A stretch of 64,000 nucleotides of DNA from Escherichia phage ECO340P1: sequence record OP172791, one strand, 5' to 3'. Of the stretch, positions 3,726 to 45,528 are shown piece after piece. Under the pieces are notes generated by a model, which made no database searches, was not told the DNA's origin, and saw only the letters and a program-made list of their open reading frames with translations. Every line of letters begins with the position of its first letter. Positions within the stretch are counted from its first letter, which is position 1. The position numbers were made by a program, and so were the translations under genes.

Positions 3726-4079
3726 TCATTCATAAGAGCAAGCAAGGATCACGCCTGCAATATAAAGCCAATAATTTTCCCTTTCTCGTTGGATTTTATC
3801 ATCGCTGCTATTCTCTTTAATGTATCCCCAGGATGTTAACAAGCGATCAATTTCCCAATATTCGAAAGCTATATTAATATCTGATGGCAAACCTTGTAAC
3901 CATGATGCAAGTGCTTTAACAATACTATAATTAAAACGTGATTGATTATCAGGGTACCAGTACTCGGAATTAAAACGGCGCATCAATTCCGCGATCTTCT
4001 CTTTTTCGGTTGTAATACCGTAATCATTAAAATCGATAGCGGCAAGGATGTACTCTTTAATTGCATTTTGTGCTTTCAT
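3726..4079 (-). CDS. hypothetical protein (117 aa)
   Basis: ORF downstream of cassette. Confidence 0.6.
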   Translation of the reverse strand: MKAQNAIKEYILAAIDFNDYGITTEKEKIAELMRRFNSEYWYPDNQSRFNYSIVKALASWLQGLPSDINIAFEYWEIDRLLTSWGYIKENSSDDKIQRERENYWLYIAGVILACSYE

Positions 4080-4097
4080 GGTCTTTCTCTCTTTTTA

Positions 4098-4154
4098 GCG
4101 GGAACTATTCCCGCCCTACGTGTAACAGTTTACTGAAAATTAAATCCGTGTCAA
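4098..4154 (-). promoter_or_regulatory. promoter-hairpin cassette for 3726-4079
   Basis: TTGACA 4149-4154, N16, TAAACT 4127-4132, hairpin GCGGGAA-CTA-TTCCCGC 4098-4114. Confidence 0.6.
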
Positions 4155-4157
4155 GCT

Positions 4158-4379
4158 TTATTTTGTTACTACCATTTGGTACCCTGTTTCAATGTTAGTA
4201 AATACTGTTATCCCGTCCTGGCGTTCACTCATTAGCATACAAGGCGCTAACATCCTTTCTACTGCCTTGCACTCATTGTAAACGGCGGTTATGTCTCCTG
4301 CGGCCTTGTCTTCTGTGGTGAATGTATCGTTTATGTAAACTTGACTAGCGACAACGGCGACAATAGCGAAAGTGATCAT
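4158..4379 (-). CDS. hypothetical protein (73 aa)
   Basis: ORF; weak SD. Confidence 0.5.
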   Translation of the reverse strand: MITFAIVAVVASQVYINDTFTTEDKAAGDITAVYNECKAVERMLAPCMLMSERQDGITVFTNIETGYQMVVTK

Positions 4380-4452
4380 GATATTTTTCTCTTTATGTGT
4401 TTCTATTAGTTGATATTACAGCAATTCGCAGATTATTTTTTAGCAATTCGTG

Positions 4453-4671
4453 CTATTTACTCATAACAGTATCGAAAACAAATTTTTCTTTGTTGTCAAA
4501 GCTCACGTATCCGATTCTACCACGCAAGCCGCAAGTAGTGCCGTATTCGTAACCGTCAAGACCTTTAACCTTCCAATCCACGCCCATTAAAACCGCATTA
4601 TATTTCTGACCAACTACAAACGCGCCACCAGTTGATTCAATGCAAACAACTTTAATTTTACGGATTGCCAT
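4453..4671 (-). CDS. hypothetical protein (72 aa)
   Basis: ORF downstream of promoter TTGACT-N16-TACAAT. Confidence 0.55.
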   Translation of the reverse strand: MAIRKIKVVCIESTGGAFVVGQKYNAVLMGVDWKVKGLDGYEYGTTCGLRGRIGYVSFDNKEKFVFDTVMSK

Positions 4672-4708
4672 TTTCTTTCTCTCTTTCTGGTGATTGGTTT
4701 CTCTTCTC

Positions 4709-4746
4709 TATAGCGCCCATTGTAAGGCGCTATAACGAAAAGTCAA
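4709..4746 (-). promoter_or_regulatory. promoter with overlapping 9-bp inverted repeat, for 4453-4671
   Basis: TTGACT 4741-4746, N16, TACAAT inside TATAGCGCC-N8-GGCGCTATA dyad 4709-4734. Confidence 0.5.
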
Positions 4747-4749
4747 CGA

Positions 4750-4917
4750 TTATTTTTTAAGGCTTAAAGTACCTAACTTGTCAGCATGACGCAGACCAGG
4801 GAATATCCATTTGCCTGACTCATCTTTCACCGGGGCTTTAAGCGTAGCGCCCAGGTTGGCGGCGTTAACTTTACGTGCAACGTTGCGAGCGGCTTCACGG
4901 GTAGCGAAAGTGATCAT
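4750..4917 (-). CDS. small hypothetical protein (55 aa)
   Basis: Unlisted ORF with SD AGAGGAAAA after cassette. Confidence 0.45.
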   Translation of the reverse strand: MITFATREAARNVARKVNAANLGATLKAPVKDESGKWIFPGLRHADKLGTLSLKK

Positions 4918-4941
4918 GGTGTTTTCCTCTTCTCTTTGTTA

Positions 4942-5003
4942 GGCGGTGGACCATTCCGCCGCCTTGATGTAATACAGTTTACTTTATTTTATTAAGATTG
5001 CAA
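4942..5003 (-). promoter_or_regulatory. promoter-hairpin cassette for 4750-4917
   Basis: TTGCAA 4998-5003, N16, TAAACT 4976-4981, GC inverted repeat 4942-4963. Confidence 0.55.
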
Positions 5004-5009
5004 GCGGTT

Positions 5010-5225
5010 TTATGAAATAATTGTCAAAGTAAAATCATAAGACTGATTTAATTTATATTGTACTTTATTGCCGTAGTAGTCACCTTTACGTAAAGATCCG
5101 CGAATACCTATCACATCCTTTACATCTTTAAGATTTTTTACGCCTGTAATGTCTTTATTGAAATACTCGTCATCTGAAAATAAAACTTGACTTGCATTTT
5201 TTAACAGTGTACGGATATTAGCCAT
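5010..5225 (-). CDS. hypothetical protein (71 aa)
   Basis: ORF downstream of cassette. Confidence 0.55.
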   Translation of the reverse strand: MANIRTLLKNASQVLFSDDEYFNKDITGVKNLKDVKDVIGIRGSLRKGDYYGNKVQYKLNQSYDFTLTIIS

Positions 5226-5250
5226 CGTGATAATCTCTCTTCTGTTGTGA

Positions 5251-5306
5251 GCGGCACTATTGCCGCCCTACGTAATACAGTTTACTCTTTTTCTTTCCGG
5301 TGTCAA
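5251..5306 (-). promoter_or_regulatory. promoter-hairpin cassette for 5010-5225
   Basis: TTGACA 5301-5306, N16, TAAACT 5279-5284, hairpin 5251-5266. Confidence 0.6.
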
Positions 5307-5315
5307 CAATCTTTT

Positions 5316-5543
5316 TCAGATTAATTCATCCAGGCATAACAGGCGATCAACGTTGAGATCGGTTAGGCTGATGGTTGGCACCTGGTAGGATTCGATGTAC
5401 TCGACGCTTGCATATTCCCCAAAATTAGCAACAGCCCACTTATTCAAGATCTCACATACATCATTAATCTTTTTGTTTGTTACAACTGCAATGACCTGGG
5501 AAGTGCCAACGGTGCCGGATACGCGAACAATATTGATAGCCAT
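5316..5543 (-). CDS. hypothetical protein (75 aa)
   Basis: ORF downstream of cassette. Confidence 0.55.
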   Translation of the reverse strand: MAINIVRVSGTVGTSQVIAVVTNKKINDVCEILNKWAVANFGEYASVEYIESYQVPTISLTDLNVDRLLCLDELI

Positions 5544-5565
5544 AATCTTTAATCTCTCTGTTTTG

Positions 5566-5624
5566 GCGGGAAACCACTTCCCGCCCTATGTGATACATCT
5601 TACACTAATTTTAAACGTTGTCAA
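5566..5624 (-). promoter_or_regulatory. promoter-hairpin cassette for 5316-5543
   Basis: TTGACA 5619-5624, N16, TAAGAT, hairpin GGCGGGAA-N5-TTCCCGCC 5566-5586. Confidence 0.6.
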
Positions 5625-5633
5625 CTGTTTTTA

Positions 5634-5873
5634 TTACATTCCAACCATCGCGGCACGGATCGCAGTAGTGCTATATTTGAAACCGTCTGGCGTTTTATCT
5701 TGTCCAGTTTGTTCCAGAAAAAGCATCATATCCCGCGCCGCATCATTACGATTAGCATTAGCGTTAATAAAATCTTGGGCCAACCGGTATAACGATTCAT
5801 CGTTATTAATCCAAAGGCTTACATTCCAATGAGTTTTGTTTTTGTGACCGTTGTACATTTTAGATTTAGCCAT
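5634..5873 (-). CDS. hypothetical protein (79 aa)
   Basis: ORF downstream of cassette. Confidence 0.55.
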   Translation of the reverse strand: MAKSKMYNGHKNKTHWNVSLWINNDESLYRLAQDFINANANRNDAARDMMLFLEQTGQDKTPDGFKYSTTAIRAAMVGM

Positions 5874-5897
5874 GATTTTTCTCTCTTTTTCAGTGAG

Positions 5898-5956
5898 GCG
5901 GGAAGTGTTCCCGCTCTCTATGTAATACAGTTTACTCTTTTTATTCGTGCTGTCAA
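5898..5956 (-). promoter_or_regulatory. promoter-hairpin cassette for 5634-5873
   Basis: TTGACA 5951-5956, N16, TAAACT 5929-5934, hairpin 5898-5914. Confidence 0.6.
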
Positions 5957-5962
5957 TGCTTT

Positions 5963-6328
5963 TTATAAATCTTTTTTACGTTTTACATCGCTCGCATGAC
6001 TGTATACAGTGATCCCATTGTCACGGCAAAAACGGGAAAGATACGCGCCGCGTGAAAACTCTTTACCTTCCATATTAATAACCTTGCTAAATTCTTCCAG
6101 GGCGACGGTATCAAAATGATCACCATAGCCATATTGAAACGGAACGTTAACCACCTCGATCAGTTTACCGCCGATCTCAACGTCAACCATTAAAGAAAAA
6201 TATGTGTTACCGTAGGACTGTTGAAACCAGCGACGGGCGCTAATGTGCACCGCTTCAATGCTGGATAATTCAATTTTAGCCGTGTTAGCCAGGGTAGCAT
6301 AAGCGGAAACATTGATATTAATAGCCAT
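5963..6328 (-). CDS. hypothetical protein (121 aa)
   Basis: ORF downstream of cassette. Confidence 0.6.
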   Translation of the reverse strand: MAININVSAYATLANTAKIELSSIEAVHISARRWFQQSYGNTYFSLMVDVEIGGKLIEVVNVPFQYGYGDHFDTVALEEFSKVINMEGKEFSRGAYLSRFCRDNGITVYSHASDVKRKKDL

Positions 6329-6354: not shown

Positions 6355-6406
6355 GGGAAGTATTCCCGATAAAAGTTATTATGCTTATACTATCACTCAT
6401 TGTCAA
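6355..6406 (-). promoter_or_regulatory. promoter-hairpin cassette for 5963-6328
   Basis: TTGACA 6401-6406, N17, CATAAT 6378-6383, hairpin GGGAA-GTA-TTCCC. Confidence 0.55.
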
Positions 6407-6425
6407 TAGTATAAGACTAAAACTT

Positions 6426-6605
6426 TTAACGATAATCGTTATAGGCTTTATTGACCTGGCGAATGTAACATTCGAAAGCAAGATCAATGTATTCGTATTC
6501 ACGCACATAATCACCATAGGTCACTACATACATTTTTAAAGTTTCCTCATAAGCCAGGAGGATCGAATCTAAACCTATAATCTCAGTTTTTGCAATGATA
6601 GCCAT
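6426..6605 (-). CDS. small hypothetical protein (59 aa)
   Basis: Unlisted ORF with SD AAAAGG after cassette. Confidence 0.45.
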   Translation of the reverse strand: MAIIAKTEIIGLDSILLAYEETLKMYVVTYGDYVREYEYIDLAFECYIRQVNKAYNDYR

Positions 6606-6625
6606 GATGTTAACCTTTTATTGTT

Positions 6626-6682
6626 GGCGGCACCATTGCCGCCCTACGTGATAAACTATACCAGAAGTTTAAACAGTGTCAA
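6626..6682 (-). promoter_or_regulatory. promoter-hairpin cassette for 6426-6605
   Basis: TTGACA 6677-6682, N16, TATAGT 6655-6660, hairpin 6626-6643. Confidence 0.6.
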
Positions 6683-6688
6683 CCGTTT

Positions 6689-7051
6689 TTATTCGTAAAT
6701 TTTACCGCTTTCGGCCCATACCATAACGCGGCGCATACTATCCCAAGTGTTTTGATCCAGGTTTAATCCGTGCAATTCTTCGGTACTTCCCAGACCAGGT
6801 ACCGCCTTGTTGTAAGTTGCATATAAGCGCCCTTGATACTCATACGCCAGGGTGAGATCCGTTTGAATCATCTTTTTAAGCATAGCATTAAGCATCATAT
6901 TAGCGGCATGTTGATCACGTTTTAGCGGTAACATATCAATAAGGGCGCGATAAGCTGAAACATGAATATCAACCGTTTCACGTGGTAAATTTTTCATCTC
7001 ATCGCGGAAAGATACCAGATTAAACATGATAGTATTGATTTGCTTGCTCAT
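6689..7051 (-). CDS. hypothetical protein (120 aa)
   Basis: Track ORF trimmed to ATG with SD AAAGGG after hairpin. Confidence 0.6.
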   Translation of the reverse strand: MSKQINTIMFNLVSFRDEMKNLPRETVDIHVSAYRALIDMLPLKRDQHAANMMLNAMLKKMIQTDLTLAYEYQGRLYATYNKAVPGLGSTEELHGLNLDQNTWDSMRRVMVWAESGKIYE

Positions 7052-8774: not shown

Positions 8775-8908
8775 GATCTTAACTCCAGGTGATAAATGAT
8801 GTTTTTTGTTGGTGGACGGTGGATTATGGAGATCCTCACCTTTGCCCGTCCTGCATTGCGCCCTCCTGTTGTTTATTGTCGTTGTGCCGCGCCCCCTCGA
8901 CAAGATGA

Positions 8909-8937
8909 ATACTACGCTACCAGGTGAGGAACGTCAA
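8909..8937 (-). promoter_or_regulatory. sigma70-type promoter for 8577-8774 with long GC-rich leader
   Basis: TTGACG 8932-8937, N17, TAGTAT 8909-8914; ~130 nt leader holds a 6-codon uORF at 8836-8856. Confidence 0.5.
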
Positions 8938-8954
8938 CCACTTTTTCAATCTTT

Positions 8955-8981
8955 TTTATTTTCTTTTTGCTTGCTATATAT
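8955..8981 (+). promoter_or_regulatory. extended -10 promoter for 9047-9313
   Basis: TGcTATATA at 8972-8980; GC hairpin GCGCC-N6-GGCGC 9008-9025 in leader. Confidence 0.35.
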
Positions 8982-9046
8982 AAAGGAAAGGGCTATCATC
9001 TTTCTACCGCGCCAACCAGGGCGCACAACAAAGAAAGGGCGACACC

Positions 9047-9313
9047 ATGACAAATACTACATTACACCTTATGCACTCATTGGGCTGGCAAGGCGGCACG
9101 GTGCACCAGGTAGCAAGCGCAACGGGCTTAAAGGTTGAAACAGTTCTCAACCTGGGCGATCATAAGGTGGAAGAGATAGATCATTTTGATACGTTCGCAA
9201 ATGGTTATCTATGGGCTTGCAGTGGCGGCGGGGAAAGCAAGATACCACCAGGGGCGCGGGGCGATATGTATTTTTGGTTAGGTGTCCTATCCTGGCAAGA
9301 AAACAAAAAATAA
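9047..9313 (+). CDS. hypothetical protein (88 aa)
   Basis: ORF with SD AAAGGG; extended -10 promoter and GC hairpin upstream. Confidence 0.5.
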   Translation: MTNTTLHLMHSLGWQGGTVHQVASATGLKVETVLNLGDHKVEEIDHFDTFANGYLWACSGGGESKIPPGARGDMYFWLGVLSWQENKK

Positions 9314-9314
9314 T

Positions 9315-9343
9315 CTTGACAAGCCCAGGGATCGGGCTTATAC
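9315..9343 (+). promoter_or_regulatory. strong sigma70-type promoter reading into non-coding region
   Basis: TTGACA 9315-9320, N17, TATACT 9338-9343; spacer is itself a dyad AGCCC..GGGCT. Confidence 0.6.
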
Positions 9344-9559
9344 TGTTTTACATACAGAAGAGGAAGCGCCACCCCACGGCGTAAAGGCGGGGCTAACATA
9401 CCAGGGGGCACTGGTTGGAAGGTTGATCGCCGGTAGGCTGGGCGCTATATATTTGTAAAGAAATGTAAAGATAAAATAATCGCTTGCTTTCCTGGCTGGA
9501 TCTGTTATTCTTATTACATGGCGAGGGGACACGGGAGCGCGAGACAAACACCGCCCCTG

Positions 9560-9945
9560 CGCGTCATTCTCTAAATGAGAATGATTATCATTTACCTTAT
9601 CAAATAAGAATCAATCTCATTTATAAACCTAAATGCGAATCATTATCATTTGCATTTCCATATGAGAACTCTTCTCATTCTCATCTGCATAAATTTTTGT
9701 AAACTTTAAATTTTGCTTTTGTACTTTCATTTTTGTAAAAGCAAAAAAACTTTAAATACTGTGGGCGCGCAAAATTTTTAAAATTTTCCTTGACTTTTGA
9801 GTTTTGTTTTGTATCTGACATTTTAAGATAATTTTCCTAAACTTTAAATTTTGGTTTTCAACTTTCACTTTTGTAAATTCTTAAAAAGTTTAAATAATTT
9901 GAGGGATTTTTGAGATAATAGGTAATGGGAATTTGAGATAACCTT
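9560..9945. repeat. AT-rich non-coding region with direct repeats (candidate replication origin)
   Basis: ~42 bp direct repeat at 9698-9741 and 9837-9880; ATGAGAATGATTATCATTT-like repeats at 9575-9685; TTTGAGATAA twice at 9909-9941. Confidence 0.45.
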
Positions 9946-10119: not shown

Positions 10120-10662
10120 TCACAAATATCGTCTTTGCGGTATTTTGTCTGGGAAAAGTATTTCGATCAGTTTGTTATGATATTTGCCTAAAAGATTCTG
10201 CCCTTTCCAGGTGGCAGGGTTTAGCACCCCTGGTTCATACATCCCCATTCCAATTCCGTAAACCTTATCGTAGGGGCTTGCTTCAACAAACGTTTTGTAT
10301 TGGTAAAGGTGTAAGTCTGCATACAAATCTGGATTCTGTACATATTTCAAGCATAAACCTCGCATAACAATACGCTCACGGTTCTCTTCCCATACGTTGT
10401 TATCAAAATCCGACACTGCCCTACCCATACGTTTGTAATAAGCTTGTTTCCTCTCGTTGTCACGTATAGTCGAGTGATCAAGGATAGCTGCTGCAATCGC
10501 ATGATCCTTGAACAGCAAAGCCTTACGCCACATCATATATTGCTCAACACAACAGAAAGTCTCATTGTAACCTGGTTCGGTTTCTGTAAAGGGTGCAATA
10601 TACCAATTACTAAAAACATCTTTATGTGAAAAGAAGAATACATAATCATCCGTTATTCGCAT
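10120..10662 (-). CDS. NADAR (DUF1768, YbiA-like) domain protein
   Basis: Motifs FSNW, CVEQYMMWRKALLF, MGR, SPYDKVYGIGMG, WKGQNLLG align with NADAR family pattern. Confidence 0.8.
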   Translation of the reverse strand: MRITDDYVFFFSHKDVFSNWYIAPFTETEPGYNETFCCVEQYMMWRKALLFKDHAIAAAILDHSTIRDNERKQAYYKRMGRAVSDFDNNVWEENRERIVMRGLCLKYVQNPDLYADLHLYQYKTFVEASPYDKVYGIGMGMYEPGVLNPATWKGQNLLGKYHNKLIEILFPDKIPQRRYL

Positions 10663-10837
10663 TTTTCACACTCTCCAAAATTTCACGTTGCCCTTTCTGA
10701 TAGGCTTTCATCAGGACCACTTTAAGGTTTGTCTCCAAAAGATCTTCATTGTAGTTATACCGCTCCACAACATATGTCAATTCATCATAAAGATCAAGAA
10801 CGGGGTAGAATACAGGGTTATCTGCTAAACGTGCCAT
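10646..10837 (-). CDS. hypothetical protein (63 aa)
   Basis: ATG 10837 with SD AAAGGAGAAA; first ATG at 10873 lies inside upstream gene. Confidence 0.45.
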   Translation of the reverse strand: MARLADNPVFYPVLDLYDELTYVVERYNYNEDLLETNLKVVLMKAYQKGQREILESVKNANNG

Positions 10838-10850
10838 AGTTTCTCCTTTG

Positions 10851-11216
10851 TTAATCCATCCACCAGTAGCCATAAACTGCGTCTGCGTCGATGAGTTTGT
10901 GTTTGTTGTTCCGCATGTAGTCTAAGATAAGTAGACGTTTATTGTATCTGGAGAGATTATGACCCTCTTTTCCGCCATAGTCAAAATATTTTGCAAGATC
11001 TTTGCACTCAAACAAAATTAGTTCAGGAGTTTCTTCACACTGGTCTGTCTGGTACACTTGACGAATGATCATGTATACATCGTCGTCTTCCGCTAAATGC
11101 TCTACTGGTCCACATCCAGCAGGAACAAATTCATAGTCCCATCGAATCAGATGTTTCTCTACTGCTTCAAAGAAATCCATCCTTTCGTTGCGCATAATTT
11201 GAACGTCAACTAACAT
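10851..11216 (-). CDS. hypothetical protein (121 aa)
   Basis: ORF with SD ACAGGAGAAAA. Confidence 0.55.
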   Translation of the reverse strand: MLVDVQIMRNERMDFFEAVEKHLIRWDYEFVPAGCGPVEHLAEDDDVYMIIRQVYQTDQCEETPELILFECKDLAKYFDYGGKEGHNLSRYNKRLLILDYMRNNKHKLIDADAVYGYWWMD

Positions 11217-12412
11217 GTTTTCTCCTGTAATGTTCCACCATAAAGTTTATAAATGTTTTGTATTGAGGCCATGCAAGATAACTCTACTGTTTCTGTGTAG
11301 CCATCTGGCATAGCATATTTGCTCACTGCTTCCGTGTGAAGGACACGCTTACAACGCTTCTCTGCATCTTTGCATTGCTTCACAGTAGGGAAGTGCCACA
11401 CTTGGACCTGTTTCATAGTAAACACATTACGACTATTTTGTTTTTTGATACGGCGATCACTATTATTGGCAATTCCAAATTTCAAAGCACAGAGAATACC
11501 TTGTTCATCATGAATGTGGTTAATGTAACATTGTTGTTGTGTCTGGTTAGCACATTGCGGACAACCAGTGCCATGATTTAACAAACCACTGGCACGTCCT
11601 ATTTGTACCCCATGTTTCTTACATCCATATTTAAACTTACCTAATCTTACAGACGGTTTCCCGATCCAACCTACCCAGATATACCCTTTCCTTTCTACTG
11701 CCTTTTTTACCCTATAGGTAATCTGTGCTTCTGTGTAATGACAATTAGTTGCACAACGGCAAGGAATCTTCCCTTGTTTAAGGTCATTCCCTGCGACATA
11801 AAACTTACCATCACACACCCCAGCTTGCACATACTCATCGTGAGAGCAGGCAGGACACTCTACACACCATAAAGAATCGCGGCCTCGTTTTTTATCTGTT
11901 TTAGTGAAGATTGTACCCTCTTTAAACTTTCCTGTATTAATGAAGTCTTGTATGTGCTGATCGTCTGGAAGTATTTTAGAATTCCTAGATCTTTTGTTAC
12001 CGCATTTAGGACAACCACTACCACCCTTAAGATTATGAAATGTTAATGTTCGCCATTCCCCGTGCTCAGGACAAAGGTTGATCATCTTTGTATGTACACC
12101 TATAAACTCTCCATTAATGCCTAAAATCTTGATTCCCTTAGCTTCAGCAATAGGTTTACATTCCGAAAGGTAATAATCTAGGTTTTTACTGTTGTCTTGT
12201 CTTGCTTTCTCATTTTTGCACCTAGGGCAACCAGACTTACCACGTTTAAAATTGGCAAATGTGGATGTTCTCCACTCCCCATGATTAGGGCAGAAGTTGA
12301 TCATCTTCGTGTGCACACCTTTAAATGGCTCTACAATCCCTATAATCTCATATCCTTTAGCTTCCGCTATTGGTTTACATTCTCCTATATACTGTTCTAA
12401 CGTCTTCGCCAT
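11210..12412 (-). CDS. Cys-rich protein with duplicated Zn-ribbon modules, possible homing-endonuclease-like
   Basis: Two repeats ECKPIAEAKG...CPxHGEWRT...GCPxC; C-terminal KFGIANNSDRR resembles T5orf172/GIY-YIG-like motif. Confidence 0.5.
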   Translation of the reverse strand: MAKTLEQYIGECKPIAEAKGYEIIGIVEPFKGVHTKMINFCPNHGEWRTSTFANFKRGKSGCPRCKNEKARQDNSKNLDYYLSECKPIAEAKGIKILGINGEFIGVHTKMINLCPEHGEWRTLTFHNLKGGSGCPKCGNKRSRNSKILPDDQHIQDFINTGKFKEGTIFTKTDKKRGRDSLWCVECPACSHDEYVQAGVCDGKFYVAGNDLKQGKIPCRCATNCHYTEAQITYRVKKAVERKGYIWVGWIGKPSVRLGKFKYGCKKHGVQIGRASGLLNHGTGCPQCANQTQQQCYINHIHDEQGILCALKFGIANNSDRRIKKQNSRNVFTMKQVQVWHFPTVKQCKDAEKRCKRVLHTEAVSKYAMPDGYTETVELSCMASIQNIYKLYGGTLQEKTC

Positions 12413-12456
12413 CTTTATCTATCCTCTCTCCCTATAAGTCTGAAGTCAATATAACA

Positions 12457-12476
12457 AAACCCGCCGAAGCGGGTTT
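12457..12476. terminator. terminator hairpin (internal to leftward operon)
   Basis: AAACCCGC-CGAA-GCGGGTTT followed by T-rich sequence on both strands. Confidence 0.55.
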
Positions 12477-12492
12477 AGTTATTTGTGCTGTA

Positions 12493-13632
12493 TCAGAACA
12501 CGCTACCCAGTGTAGTGGAACGTTGTGTTACAGGCTCCAGCACCACTCGCAGAGTGTTTCCTGGTGTAGTGCTCATCACCAGAATCTTACCACCTTCAAT
12601 CAGATCACAAGTTAGACCATCAGCAGTTGCACACAGATCAATATGTGGATCGCCATCTTCATCCAGGATAACATAACTGTTGGTTTCCATTGCTTCCACT
12701 TCATCATCTTTCAAACTTTGTAGATAGATGTTCAGGGAACAAGCACCCGACAAAAACTTAGTAGGGGTGAAGTCGTGCCAGTTATTGATCCAATTCACCT
12801 TCAAGGTTTTGCCATTAGCTACGATAGAAGCCACATTCCATTTAGCATCGTTCCCTAAAGAAATACCCATCATTTCAAGACATTCTTTAAAAGTCATTTT
12901 TGGATAGAAATTCAATTCTTCTACAATGCCTTGAATAACATCGAAAGACAACTCTGTGCTAACATCCCATAAACGTTGGAAGTTATCTACGTGCTTTTTA
13001 TTTACCAAGTTCTTATCCAAGTAATCTAACATAGTTTCACTAGATAGTTTATCGTAATTGAAACTGTAGTAGATACGACTAGGACGGTTTACAAAATATT
13101 CCGAGATATAGCCACTATTTTTAGTGAGGATGTAAAGTTTATTCCCACTTCCTGTTCCATCCAACAAGGTCAACAGTGCTTCCTGATCTTCTTTCTTAGC
13201 GTACACTTTATCAAATTCGTCAAATAAAACAACAGCACGATCTGTAATTTTACTCATAAATTCTAAGAAGCCAGCATCTGTGTAAGGCTGTGTAACCAAA
13301 ATGGTTGGAATACCTAAACCTTCTGTGGACATTAGAGACATGCTAATCAGTTTAGCTAACATCGTCTTACCACTGCCCTTTGTCCCTGTCAGTAACACCC
13401 CAGTATTTTTACCTTCTTTACTACGACGAGCAAATGTTTTAATAACATGTGCGGCGCGGTCTTTAGTTTCCCCATAAAGAGTGTTCGGAAGAGAGAAACT
13501 TTCGCCACGCACTAAAGAGTAGTTACCGTGCGGATCGCAGTTGACAACCCAAACTCCAGCAGGAAGTTTATTAGCTTCAACACCATATTCCTTATTTACA
13601 ACAGCCACATCTCCAAAAATAGTGTATTTCAT
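12493..13632 (-). CDS. AAA+ ATPase
   Basis: Walker A GTKGSGKT and Walker B VVLFDEFD; unknown C-terminal domain. Confidence 0.65.
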   Translation of the reverse strand: MKYTIFGDVAVVNKEYGVEANKLPAGVWVVNCDPHGNYSLVRGESFSLPNTLYGETKDRAAHVIKTFARRSKEGKNTGVLLTGTKGSGKTMLAKLISMSLMSTEGLGIPTILVTQPYTDAGFLEFMSKITDRAVVLFDEFDKVYAKKEDQEALLTLLDGTGSGNKLYILTKNSGYISEYFVNRPSRIYYSFNYDKLSSETMLDYLDKNLVNKKHVDNFQRLWDVSTELSFDVIQGIVEELNFYPKMTFKECLEMMGISLGNDAKWNVASIVANGKTLKVNWINNWHDFTPTKFLSGACSLNIYLQSLKDDEVEAMETNSYVILDEDGDPHIDLCATADGLTCDLIEGGKILVMSTTPGNTLRVVLEPVTQRSTTLGSVF

Positions 13633-14351: not shown

Positions 14352-14603
14352 TTAGAACTCGACAATGATTTTGTCTAAGTGTTCTGCTTCAACTTGGGAT
14401 AATGTTAACACCTGCACCAAACCTCTGTCAATGCCTAATTTGATCACTTGCAAATAATCACCGAAAAGATCAGAGATTTCAATCTGGTGTTCAGTAACCA
14501 CCACGACCTCGTTACCCTTGGTATACTCTCTCCAGATTCGTCCACACTTGTAAATGAAATCTTTCTGGTCTTCACTGATCATCTTAGGCTTAACGCTTAA
14601 CAT
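14352..14603 (-). CDS. hypothetical protein (83 aa)
   Basis: ORF with SD GGGAG; TAATG overlap with upstream gene. Confidence 0.55.
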   Translation of the reverse strand: MLSVKPKMISEDQKDFIYKCGRIWREYTKGNEVVVVTEHQIEISDLFGDYLQVIKLGIDRGLVQVLTLSQVEAEHLDKIIVEF

Positions 14604-14941
14604 TACATACTCCCGTATTCTGGTTCAATATTATGTTTACGACAAATGGTATCCCAACGTTCATTACCAAAACTTCTTCCATGTAGAGCGTTAAATGCGA
14701 AATGCTCTGCCAACCACAATACTACATCATCAGGATCTGTGTCAAGAGGAATTCTAAACTCTCGATCATAACGCATACGCAGAATAAAATCCTTATCATC
14801 TTCAAGGAGATACATGTGACTTTTAGCCCGTGATGCCAAATCAAAGAAAGGAGGCTCATCTTTCCAAACGTGACGCTCAACTTCAACACCATGATCAACT
14901 ACCAGAGTAGCGATCACCTCTCTCATTTCTTTACTAAACAT
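14603..14941 (-). CDS. hypothetical protein (112 aa)
   Basis: ATG 14941 with SD GGAGGT (track start is TTG). Confidence 0.55.
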   Translation of the reverse strand: MFSKEMREVIATLVVDHGVEVERHVWKDEPPFFDLASRAKSHMYLLEDDKDFILRMRYDREFRIPLDTDPDDVVLWLAEHFAFNALHGRSFGNERWDTICRKHNIEPEYGSM

Positions 14942-14951
14942 ATTACCTCCA

Positions 14952-15128
14952 TTAACCAATTAGTTCAACTGCTTTGCAGATGTAGATCCAAACCGGAGTG
15001 AGCATAAGAGCTATACCGAATGCACAATTCCACTTAATTCCCATTTCCTCTATTAGAGACATGATTAAGCCAACAGCACTAATAATCAAATAGATCCCTA
15101 AGAAAGCCATTGTGAAGAATTCAGACAT
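14952..15128 (-). CDS. small membrane protein (58 aa)
   Basis: ATG 15128 with SD TGGAG; hydrophobic. Confidence 0.45.
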   Translation of the reverse strand: MSEFFTMAFLGIYLIISAVGLIMSLIEEMGIKWNCAFGIALMLTPVWIYICKAVELIG

Positions 15129-43749: not shown

Positions 43750-45528
43750 GTGTCGCACATTATAACTAAATATGGATTTGATGTTGATCTTAGCAAGGAA
43801 GGGCATACAGGTTGTCCGCGCTGCATGAAAAATGGCAAGGATCGCTCTCGTAATAACCTGATGGTTTATGGATTAGATTCTAATGGAGAGCATAAAGGTG
43901 CTAAGTGCTTTGCGTGTGAATACACTATTCCTAGCGTAGAATGGTTACGAGAAAATGGTGAAGTTTTAGAAGAAGAGGAGGAGATTGTGGGTTCGGAATT
44001 TAATAAACAGATTCATCGTAAAATTGTTCAAGAAACATCAACCAACCCACGTGGTTATCGAGGAATTAAAGAAAAAGTTTCATCTTTCTATGGTGTTCGT
44101 TATGAATACCGTCAGGAAGGGGATCAGATGGTAGTAGAAAGTTGTTTATATCCGACTACTATCGGTAAAGAATTGGTTGGTTTTAAGCGTCGTATTCATC
44201 CTAAAGATTTCAGTAAACCTATTGGTCAAGTAGGTAAAGATGTAGATCTTTTTGGACAAATTCGTTTTGCAGACCGTTCTCATACTGTGGTAATTACAGG
44301 TGGTGAACACGATGCTCTGGCAGCTTATCAAATGCTATCTGAAAACTTGGACAACAAGTATGAACTTCCAGCAGTAGTTAGTGGCACAACTGGTGAAACC
44401 AGTATGTATAAACAAGTTCAGGCACAATATCCTTTCTTTGAAAAATTTAAGAAGATTATTGTTTGCATGGATAATGACAAAGCAGGTAATGAAGCATTTG
44501 AAAATATTGTTAAGGTGCTGCCTCGTAACAAAGTCTACCGTATGCAGATGGATCTTAAGGATGCCAATCAGTATCTGGAAGAAGGTCGTGCAAAAGATTT
44601 CGTAAAAGCTTTTTGGAGTGCTCGTCTATACACCCCAGCAGGTGTTTATGCTTCTAATGTCTTGTATGAAGCTGCATTAGAATGCTTGGAATCCAAGATG
44701 ATTACCTTGCCTCCTTTTATGCGTGTAGCTGCAAACATGCTGGGTGGTGGTTTAGTAGAGGAAGAGATTACAGTCATCCTGGCAAAGACCAGTATCGGTA
44801 AAACTTTAATGGTGAACGAGATCACCAAACATATTATTGTTGCGCACCCAGAACATACCCTAGGTATCCTGTCCTTGGAAGCAACTTATAAGAAATATTC
44901 TCGTAACCTGTTGTCCTCGTTCCTGCATATTCCTCTACACAGGAAAACACCGGAAGAGAAATTTCAAATCTTGGAAGAGAATAAAGAAAAAATCCTAGAT
45001 TTTTACGAAAGAGAAGATGGATCACCACGTTTTTATGTGTGTGATGATCGTGGAGCAGATGTGGAGTCTATCAAAGAAAAAGTTTTGGAGATGATCATCT
45101 ATTTTGGAGTAACAATTCTTGTTATCGACCCTTATTCTGATTTGCTTTCTGGTATGGATGTTCAAGCCCAGGAAGAGTTAGCAACATGGTTGAAGCGCAT
45201 CATGAAAGAGTATGCTATAACTATTATCGTCATCTCACACGTTAAGAAATCGGCTAATGGTGGCAATGAACACTTAACAGAGGACGATGCAATGGGTAGT
45301 AGTTTCTTGGCTAAAGGTGCTGGTATTACCTTGGCTTTGGAACGAGATAAAGCCGCTGAAGACCCTGTAGAACGCAATACGACTCATTGCTTTATCCTAA
45401 AAAACCGTGAGTTCTCGGAAACTGGTCCGGCAGGGCAGTTTTACTATGACATTAGAACTGCAACTCTGCATGACAAAGAGCAGTATTTCAACAATCCTGC
45501 TAATTTGCCTACGGATAGCAACTATTAA
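43750..45528 (+). CDS. DNA primase/helicase (T7 gp4-like)
   Basis: GTG start after SD AGGAGAA; Zn-binding CPRC..CFAC, TOPRIM (GGEHDA, MDNDKAGNEA), Walker A AKTSIGKT. Confidence 0.85.
   Translation: MSHIITKYGFDVDLSKEGHTGCPRCMKNGKDRSRNNLMVYGLDSNGEHKGAKCFACEYTIPSVEWLRENGEVLEEEEEIVGSEFNKQIHRKIVQETSTNPRGYRGIKEKVSSFYGVRYEYRQEGDQMVVESCLYPTTIGKELVGFKRRIHPKDFSKPIGQVGKDVDLFGQIRFADRSHTVVITGGEHDALAAYQMLSENLDNKYELPAVVSGTTGETSMYKQVQAQYPFFEKFKKIIVCMDNDKAGNEAFENIVKVLPRNKVYRMQMDLKDANQYLEEGRAKDFVKAFWSARLYTPAGVYASNVLYEAALECLESKMITLPPFMRVAANMLGGGLVEEEITVILAKTSIGKTLMVNEITKHIIVAHPEHTLGILSLEATYKKYSRNLLSSFLHIPLHRKTPEEKFQILEENKEKILDFYEREDGSPRFYVCDDRGADVESIKEKVLEMIIYFGVTILVIDPYSDLLSGMDVQAQEELATWLKRIMKEYAITIIVISHVKKSANGGNEHLTEDDAMGSSFLAKGAGITLALERDKAAEDPVERNTTHCFILKNREFSETGPAGQFYYDIRTATLHDKEQYFNNPANLPTDSNY

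Follow-up and report, generated by a model that had tools for sequence, protein, structure and literature searches.

What does the gene behind a conserved ATPase gene of phAPEC8-like coliphages encode, and how do nearly identical phages come to carry very different versions of it in the same place? The question is raised by positions 11210-12412 of a 64,000-nucleotide stretch of Escherichia phage ECO340P1 (record OP172791; this whole stretch is called the window), where a sequence-only reading had proposed a protein with repeated zinc (Zn) ribbons and a T5orf172/GIY-YIG-like C-terminus, either a freestanding homing endonuclease or a regulator. The source was an E. coli myovirus like phAPEC8, from the genus Phapecoctavirus (subfamily Stephanstirmvirinae), and the 4-kb stretch spanning the gene was 97% identical to phages including vB_EcoM-Ro121c4YLVW and DE16. 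We consider it rather probable, for the reading as a whole, that the gene encodes an active homing-type, site-specific nuclease whose versions are replaced by recombination.

An intact open reading frame (ORF) was found on the minus strand at exactly the coordinates first proposed. The gene call was based on the ORF list, PHROG 681, the Pfam family CapR and an AlphaFold2 model: PHROG 681 (“endonuclease”) covered the protein from end to end (E = 3e-78), and the full-length model had a mean predicted local distance difference test score (pLDDT) of 94. The 400-aa protein contains 24 cysteines, and its domain architecture can be written, with high confidence, as Z-Z-C-Z-N, in which Z is a DUF723/DUF4379-like module (C-x2-H...C-x2-C), C a CapR core and N the C-terminal nuclease domain. 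The parts of the gene are as follows.

11210..12412, minus strand: complete endonuclease gene, ATG start, 400 aa, Z-Z-C-Z-N
12182..12400, minus strand: first Zn module
11963..12181, minus strand: second Zn module
11735..11959, minus strand: CapR-core Zn finger, residues 152-226
11537..11734, minus strand: third, diverged Zn module, residues 227-292
11213..11536, minus strand: T5orf172/GIY-YIG-superfamily nuclease domain, residues 293-400
Motif residues of the nuclease domain, minus strand: Y296 at 11525-11527; K311-F-G313 at 11474-11482; R321 at 11450-11452; E374 at 11291-11293; and E351

The proposed resemblance of the C-terminus to T5orf172 proved real, with both the fold and the catalytic motifs present, even though the family match stayed below threshold in the window copy. 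Nine residues (Y296, K311, G313, R321, E351, D370, G371, E374 and T375) were invariant in 52 homologs, down to 27% identity. As judged from the alignment and the model, the motif spacing and secondary-structure positions would fit the superfamily layout, with its GIY and YIG strands, a catalytic Arg in helix 1 and a catalytic Glu. As in Odn, the window protein had no evident counterpart of the His or Tyr that is usual in helix 1. Modelled alone (pLDDT 95), the domain had a strand-strand-helix-strand-helix order with the three-stranded sheet by which a GIY-YIG fold is recognised. T5orf172 was matched in 22 of the 52 homologs at E <= 0.01 (best E = 4.5e-5), and the orthologs of VEcB (20.6 bits) and phi92 (20.2 bits) scored above the Pfam cut-off. 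The GIY-YIG fold assignment is well supported, and catalytic competence of the putative nuclease domain appears likely. By homology to Odn and other GIY-YIG enzymes, an active nuclease is to be expected with good probability.

The repeats were also found, in a form that differs from the first description. Two copies, residues 5-76 and 78-146, were 68% identical over 69 positions (local alignment z = 44 against shuffles), as proposed; the unit, however, was 73 aa rather than about 55 aa, and a third, diverged copy was present. At the DNA level the direct repeats had a period of 219 nt and 77-79% identity. The first module was defined by this repeat alignment, DUF723 (E = 3e-12), a module hidden Markov model (HMM; E = 2e-31) and the modelled secondary structure. 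Block HMMs were made from columns of the 52-homolog alignment; that of residues 227-291 matched copy 1 (E = 1.5e-14) and copy 2 (E = 5.8e-13), indicating a third copy of the module, and the AlphaFold2 model had the same helix, three strands and helix in residues 5-56, 78-129 and 228-280. The candidate ligand sets of the three Z modules are C41/H44/C62/C65, C114/H117/C134/C137 and C264/H267/C284/C287. DUF723 was matched at 46.6 bits (cut-off 20.9) in two stretches; DUF4379 reached only 10.4 bits in the window copy and was matched in 21 of the 52 homologs.

The further Cys pairs seen in the sequence were confirmed, forming a separate CapR-core Zn finger between the module copies, and the block HMMs set this central block (residues 152-226) apart from the Z modules. 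The Pfam CapR homology domain (PF21817) was matched in the protein at 98.6 bits (cut-off 24.2, E = 2e-28) in three to four stretches, the best of them at residues 155-221, and was matched in all 52 aligned homologs. The core has the cysteines C186-x2-C189 ... C218-x-C220, plus C183, C200 and C224; C186 and C220 were invariant, and C189, C200 and C218 were at least 90% conserved. In Vibrio cholerae, CapR is a repressor, encoded by the PLE satellite, that binds the ICP1 capsid promoter and needs four conserved cysteines for DNA binding (PMC8096241), and the CxxC...CxC pattern that is needed there is present in the central module of the window protein. By homology to CapR, the modules are inferred to bind Zn and DNA.

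Taken together, the protein is probably a DNA endonuclease that is directed by sequence; it would belong to the T5orf172 branch of the GIY-YIG superfamily and have a “beads on a string” build. Its three helix/three-strand/helix Cys3His modules and the single CapR-core Cys4 finger would jointly read an extended DNA site, and the C-terminal domain would then cut nearby by means of the conserved R321 and E374.

The surroundings of the gene were constant. The following features bound it, and the ATPase gene, separated from it by an 80-nt spacer, served as the upstream anchor.

12493..13632, minus strand: AAA ATPase gene, conserved anchor upstream and left boundary of the variable cassette (Pfam AAA; identical in relatives)
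12457..12476, minus strand: intrinsic terminator hairpin that ends the ATPase transcription unit, directly before the gene (terminator scan)
12422..12432, minus strand: ribosome-binding site GGGAGAGAGGA, 9 nt before the endonuclease ATG (direct sequence reading)
11210..11230, minus strand: conserved 3′ tail, right boundary of the variable cassette, carrying the ribosome-binding site (AGGAG) and ATG (11214-11216) of the 121-aa downstream gene

In virtually all of the Phapecoctavirus and Justusliebigvirus phages that were examined, the gene sat in one and the same slot. The order ATPase, hairpin, endonuclease was shared by phAPEC8, Ro121c4YLVW and ESCO13 (Phapecoctavirus), by VEcB and phi92 (Justusliebigvirus) and by four IMG/VR contigs. 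To test presence or absence in relatives, a query of the flanks only, with the gene removed, was used. Among the matches listed, 26 Phapecoctavirus records had conserved flanks, and 25 of them carried an insert; its size was about 970, 1000, 1170-1180, 1203 or 1470 bp, in steps of roughly 200-290 bp, close to one 219-nt module. In 121 family members the number of N-terminal modules ranged from zero to three, and every architecture ended in N.

Absence of the gene, which the sequence-only reading had suggested looking for in close relatives, was confined to two exceptions. In EP57 (vB_EcoM_EP57, OR544956.1, 2858-4363) a 1.27-kb deletion, corresponding to about 11230-12502 of the window, leaves a 1506-nt coding sequence (CDS) in which the ATPase ORF runs on in frame into the downstream ORF of 121 aa; this loss is doubtful and may be an assembly artefact, because the record is only 130.7 kb long and has many very short CDSs. 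In a more distant contig, a DUF6939 gene and a 75-aa ORF follow the ATPase terminator in place of the endonuclease. Of the combination that had been named as refuting the sequence-only reading, a fixed position in all relatives together with lack of a nuclease fold, the fixed position was found and the lack of the fold was not.

Three apparent irregularities in related records were examined and set aside. A split copy in vB_EcoM_01 (PP129558.1, about 735-1130) was rejected as a pseudogene, being interrupted by a run of Ns. These Ns cover exactly the internal repeat region; short-read assembly seems to break down over the 219-nt tandem repeat, and a truncated CDS annotation resulted. The split copies in tuntematon and W22 were rejected as such, being single-module versions, and a “second place” in the closest phage records was not a second gene, being a self-match of the internal repeat.

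Within this constant setting the versions of the gene differed strongly, as seen from amino acid comparison of the window with four relatives.

Ro121c4YLVW (same genus): ATPase 100%, endonuclease 99.5%, nuclease domain 98.1%
phAPEC8 (same genus): ATPase 100%, endonuclease 64.8%, nuclease domain 90.7%
ESCO13 (same genus): ATPase 100%, endonuclease 35.8%, nuclease domain 34.7%
VEcB (other genus): ATPase 65.5%, endonuclease 56.2%, nuclease domain 50.5%

The history of the versions thus conflicts with the genome tree, VEcB of the other genus being nearer to the window than ESCO13 of the same genus. The nucleotide alignment with ESCO13 ended at 11226 and restarted at 12488, i.e. at the two ends of the gene together with the spacer that precedes it, and the conserved 3′ tail was retained even in this 36%-identical version. 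Against phAPEC8, identity fell from 96-99% outside the gene to 58-81% within it.

Between the window and phAPEC8, synonymous divergence (dS) was 0.08 in the ATPase gene, with a nonsynonymous divergence (dN) of 0; it was 0.24 in the nuclease domain (dN/dS 0.18) and ran from 0.7 to saturation in the DNA-binding modules. Overall, synonymous divergence of the gene was 3 to >15 times that of the adjacent ATPase gene, and dN/dS was 0.18-0.39 wherever it was measurable. The phAPEC8 version was itself a mosaic, with a nuclease domain 91% like that of the window and a first N-terminal module near-identical to those of VEcB and phi92.

Two deep classes of the gene were found side by side in a 22-kb Logan contig (SRR21291491), the ATPase gene of which was 74% identical at the nucleotide level. 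Its slot (4001-6010) holds a 669-aa ORF with two complete Z-C-Z-N units in frame; the first unit was of the ESCO13 type (63% overall, 71% in the nuclease domain) and the second of the window type (51% overall, 61% in the nuclease domain). A third unit, a 197-aa Z-N protein at 6380-6973, replaces genes two positions downstream. The catalytic motif was retained in all three units. The in-frame fusion of the first two is either real or a sequencing error at the stop codon.

The conflict with the genome tree, the dS values, the mosaics and the tandem classes together indicated that the versions long predate the genome backbone and are under purifying selection; they are neither decaying nor merely evolving fast where they sit. 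What look like deep “alleles” are paralogous lineages able to co-reside, and different phages keep one or the other. Replacement of such deeply divergent versions at a fixed locus points to horizontal exchange.

These observations can be joined in the following mechanism. The gene would be a homing-endonuclease-type element that saturates one fixed intergenic slot after the ATPase terminator, and its divergent versions, with one to three N-terminal modules, would swap by recombination through the near-identical flanks. Replacement would most likely take place during co-infection, with the cutting of genomes that bear another version as its plausible driver. The replacement itself, the constancy of the locus and the purifying selection were observed; that homing or exclusion is what drives the exchange we put at even chances.

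Several results weigh against an active nuclease of the homing type. The sporadic presence and absence that is the classical signature of homing endonucleases was not seen, the gene being fixed in two genera, no degenerate copies were found, and genes that stay fixed for long under purifying selection are more typically those that benefit their carrier. Homing has, according to Barth, Dunham and Seed (2023), not been verified experimentally for any T5orf172 gene (PMC10448857). In the window copy T5orf172 (PF10544) scored 14.5 bits against a Pfam cut-off of 20 (E = 0.051); MUG113 was likewise below its cut-off (17.2 vs 22.3 bits, E = 0.008, residues 301-365), so that the family assignment is indirect and draws its support from homologs. 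A full-length Foldseek search of the PDB gave noise only, as expected for a multi-domain chain; the domain-only search gave no significant E-value, with Slx1 as the sole family at a template modelling (TM) score of about 0.5, and phmmer and profile searches of PDB sequences returned no GIY-YIG protein, the one weak match being the Zn ribbon of ribosomal protein L31 (E = 0.1). A search of NCBIfam with the protein gave nothing useful. The proposal of a freestanding homing endonuclease accordingly stood in part: the gene is intergenic, lies outside any intron and has a nuclease-type domain, but it is not sporadic among relatives.

A nuclease domesticated by the phage is a possible, if rather unlikely, alternative; it would serve to exclude competitors, destroy satellites or other parasites, or attack host DNA, with its DNA-binding array engaged in an arms race. 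Such a role would plausibly fit the fixation and the purifying selection equally well, and it would be compatible with homing, as marker exclusion also helps the carrier. The gene sits intact everywhere at one fixed locus in two genera with ATPases only 65% identical, dN/dS is <0.4 in every module, the catalytic residues are invariant, and the gene is embedded in an operon and coupled in translation to its neighbour. Between versions the DNA-binding part is far more divergent than the nuclease part, which fits selection on specificity. A precedent is given by Odn, a T5orf172 nuclease turned against the PLE satellite (PMC8263062), and the phages Muut, Inny and Mt1B1_P17 of the same subfamily carry separate Odn-like RepA_N-T5orf172 genes that are matched to E. 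coli satellites (PMC10448857). Unlike in that RepA_N case, no target candidate was found in 5,426 complete E. coli genomes, which held neither a nucleotide match to the gene nor a satellite or prophage relative of its DNA-binding region, and the PADLOC library of defence systems gave no match. The tandem and extra copies of the Logan contig and the multi-copy state elsewhere resemble selfish proliferation instead, and the gene would appear dispensable if the EP57 assembly is correct.

A bolder and doubtful extension is that the slot is an “incompatibility” locus of the Stephanstirmvirinae, in which near-identical, co-circulating phages keep alternative nuclease specificities and so tell self from non-self among siblings. 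If this were true, frequency-dependent selection would keep the versions far longer than the age of the backbone, and in co-infected cells each version would cut the genomes of rivals, be they phages with another version or parasites; the gene would then not be a selfish one heading to decay.

A DNA-binding regulator with a vestigial nuclease, which would bind a promoter or operator without cutting, in the manner of CapR or of I-TevI in its repressor mode, is very unlikely. CapR, a transcriptional repressor, does derive from such a DNA-binding domain (PMC8096241), I-TevI also acts as an autorepressor (PMC10448857), and the sub-threshold T5orf172 match of the window copy would suit a vestigial domain. 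However, repressors of the CapR type have lost the nuclease domain, and the window protein retains a full one, with invariant Y, K-G, R and E in 52 of 52 homologs, a dN/dS of 0.18 and a model that is confidently GIY-YIG-like; a regulator of a conserved target, moreover, should not range between 36% and 100% identity in phages whose neighbouring genes are identical. The regulator that the sequence-only reading had offered as an alternative is thus unlikely as the sole function, because the catalytic set is invariant.

Divergence of the versions where they sit, driven fast by strong positive selection and without horizontal exchange, would agree with flanks that are uniformly 95-99% identical and have no visible co-conversion tracts, but was rejected as highly improbable on the dS values (3 to >15 times those of the adjacent ATPase, with dN/dS <1) and on the conflict of version tree and genome tree, together with the intragenic mosaics and the tandem occurrence of both deep classes.

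The favoured reading, an active homing-type nuclease with replaceable versions, was then compared with known systems. CapR has its relatives in the N-terminal regions of ICP1 proteins with a T5orf172 domain at the other end (PMC8096241). The central module of the window protein (about 152-226) is like CapR in its match to the family model and in the essential CxxC...CxC, whereas CapR is a stand-alone repressor without a nuclease, to which the window protein adds three Zn modules and an intact nuclease domain. The family was found in 428 phage records, with two to four copies per genome in ICP1 and some others. Barth et al. listed 229 putative T5orf172 homing endonucleases, 87% of them with CapR, with DUF723 or with a third Zn-finger domain related to these, in many cases as repeats; repeated CapR/DUF723 before T5orf172 is their typical architecture, and recombination between intragenic repeats has been documented in them (PMC10448857).

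A direct homolog of the window protein is ICP1 gp165 (ORF165; tblastn E about 1e-24, 27% identity over residues 1-327), and both gp165 and gp174 likewise have repeated N-terminal Zn-finger modules followed by a C-terminal T5orf172. Intragenic repeats, varying module number, domain shuffling and conserved genes as neighbours are all shared with the putative homing endonucleases of ICP1. These, however, occur in several copies per genome and vary between isolates by presence or absence and by frameshift, whereas the window type is a single copy in a fixed slot of two genera that varies by replacement of versions. The window gene was not found in those supplementary tables of Barth et al. that were searched (PMC10448857), and a literature search returned no paper on this gene in Phapecoctavirus. 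The window protein is an ordinary member of the class that those authors described.

Odn (ICP1 gp88) is the sole T5orf172 protein with demonstrated cleavage; it cleaves the satellite origin in vitro, dependent on the catalytic Glu of GIY-YIG (PMC8263062). The window protein resembles it in a T5orf172 domain with conserved Arg and Glu, which would be steered by an N-terminal sequence-specific DNA-binding domain, and differs in having Zn-finger modules, no RepA_N match and no relative of a target in E. coli genomes. With I-TevI and the Seg proteins it shares the modular “beads on a string” build, including a Zn finger, and, with the Seg genes, a freestanding intergenic location. In those enzymes, by contrast, the nuclease is N-terminal and NUMOD and helix-turn-helix modules are used; in the window protein the order is reversed (nuclease at residues 293-400), Pfam matched none of these modules and found CapR/DUF723 instead, and K-F-G replaces the “YIG” with its tyrosine. 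The Seg genes of T4 are sporadically distributed, and the window gene is not. The eukaryotic, structure-specific SLX1 and At-HIGLE (13-16% identity) are related at the level of the fold only, and carry a C-terminal Zn finger of the RING/PHD type, not N-terminal CapR/DUF723 arrays.

The terminator that had been described as setting the gene off was confirmed upstream only, as a GC-rich hairpin with an 8-bp stem and a T-run, kept in all relatives at the ATPase/endonuclease junction as two sequence types. Downstream of the gene no terminator was found, and its stop overlaps the ATG of the next gene. A strong ribosome-binding site precedes the endonuclease gene in all relatives, and a sigma-70-like promoter was looked for between the terminator and the endonuclease ATG and not found. 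The next gene downstream (121 aa, 10851-11216) is followed by two more small genes and then by a NADAR-domain gene; the endonuclease gene is translationally coupled to the next gene and embedded in an operon. The last gene of this operon (10120-10662, minus strand), the NADAR-domain protein (Pfam E = 2e-35), is annotated as “GTP cyclohydrolase II” in several records, which looks a misnomer.

No paralog of the endonuclease gene was found elsewhere in the 64-kb window. A 592-aa ORF with N-terminal CxxC pairs (43750-45528, plus strand), in which tblastn gave weak echoes of the Zn-module motif near 43.7 kb (E = 0.3-2), the only ones in the rest of the window, was rejected as a relative.

Other parts of the region also drew attention. 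About 1 kb (8815-9783) lacks a convincing long ORF, the only one being an 88-aa ORF on the plus strand (9047-9313) that ESCO13, VEcB and phi92 annotate as hypothetical. The whole stretch shares 87% identity with Justusliebigvirus phages, and 94-99% over 8800-9400, against about 66-75% or no alignment for neighbouring protein genes; no tRNA and no Rfam family were found in it, and it could hold a conserved element, be it regulatory, an origin or an RNA. Two patches, 10600-10800 and 14400-14600, were only 74-81% identical to Phapecoctavirus genomes that otherwise reach 95-99%; the first covers a 75-aa gene (10646-10873), the second is located about two small genes (14352-14603 and 14603-14959), and both may be further small variable cassettes. 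Two records named for other hosts, MG065650.1 (“Campylobacter phage B15”) and OP562383.1 (“Acinetobacter phage vB_AbaM_ABPW7”), were 96.6-97.5% identical to this coliphage region and are probably mislabelled as to host, or contaminating coliphages.

As the class has already been described, the architecture of the protein adds little; the one notable aspect of the locus is that near-identical phages have very different versions at the same spot. For annotation we suggest “T5orf172/GIY-YIG endonuclease with CapR-type Zn fingers”, with a caution that the internal 219-nt repeat can break assemblies. The locus is a clean natural experiment for the question of homing or exclusion by T5orf172 genes: in many E. 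coli phages with known sequence, flanks that are 95-99% identical and neighbouring proteins that are identical surround nuclease versions up to 64% different in sequence and one to three DNA-binding modules apart. As these phages grow readily in culture, pairwise crosses could test biased inheritance directly and map the target, and the module variants could reveal how CapR/DUF723 finger arrays encode DNA specificity.

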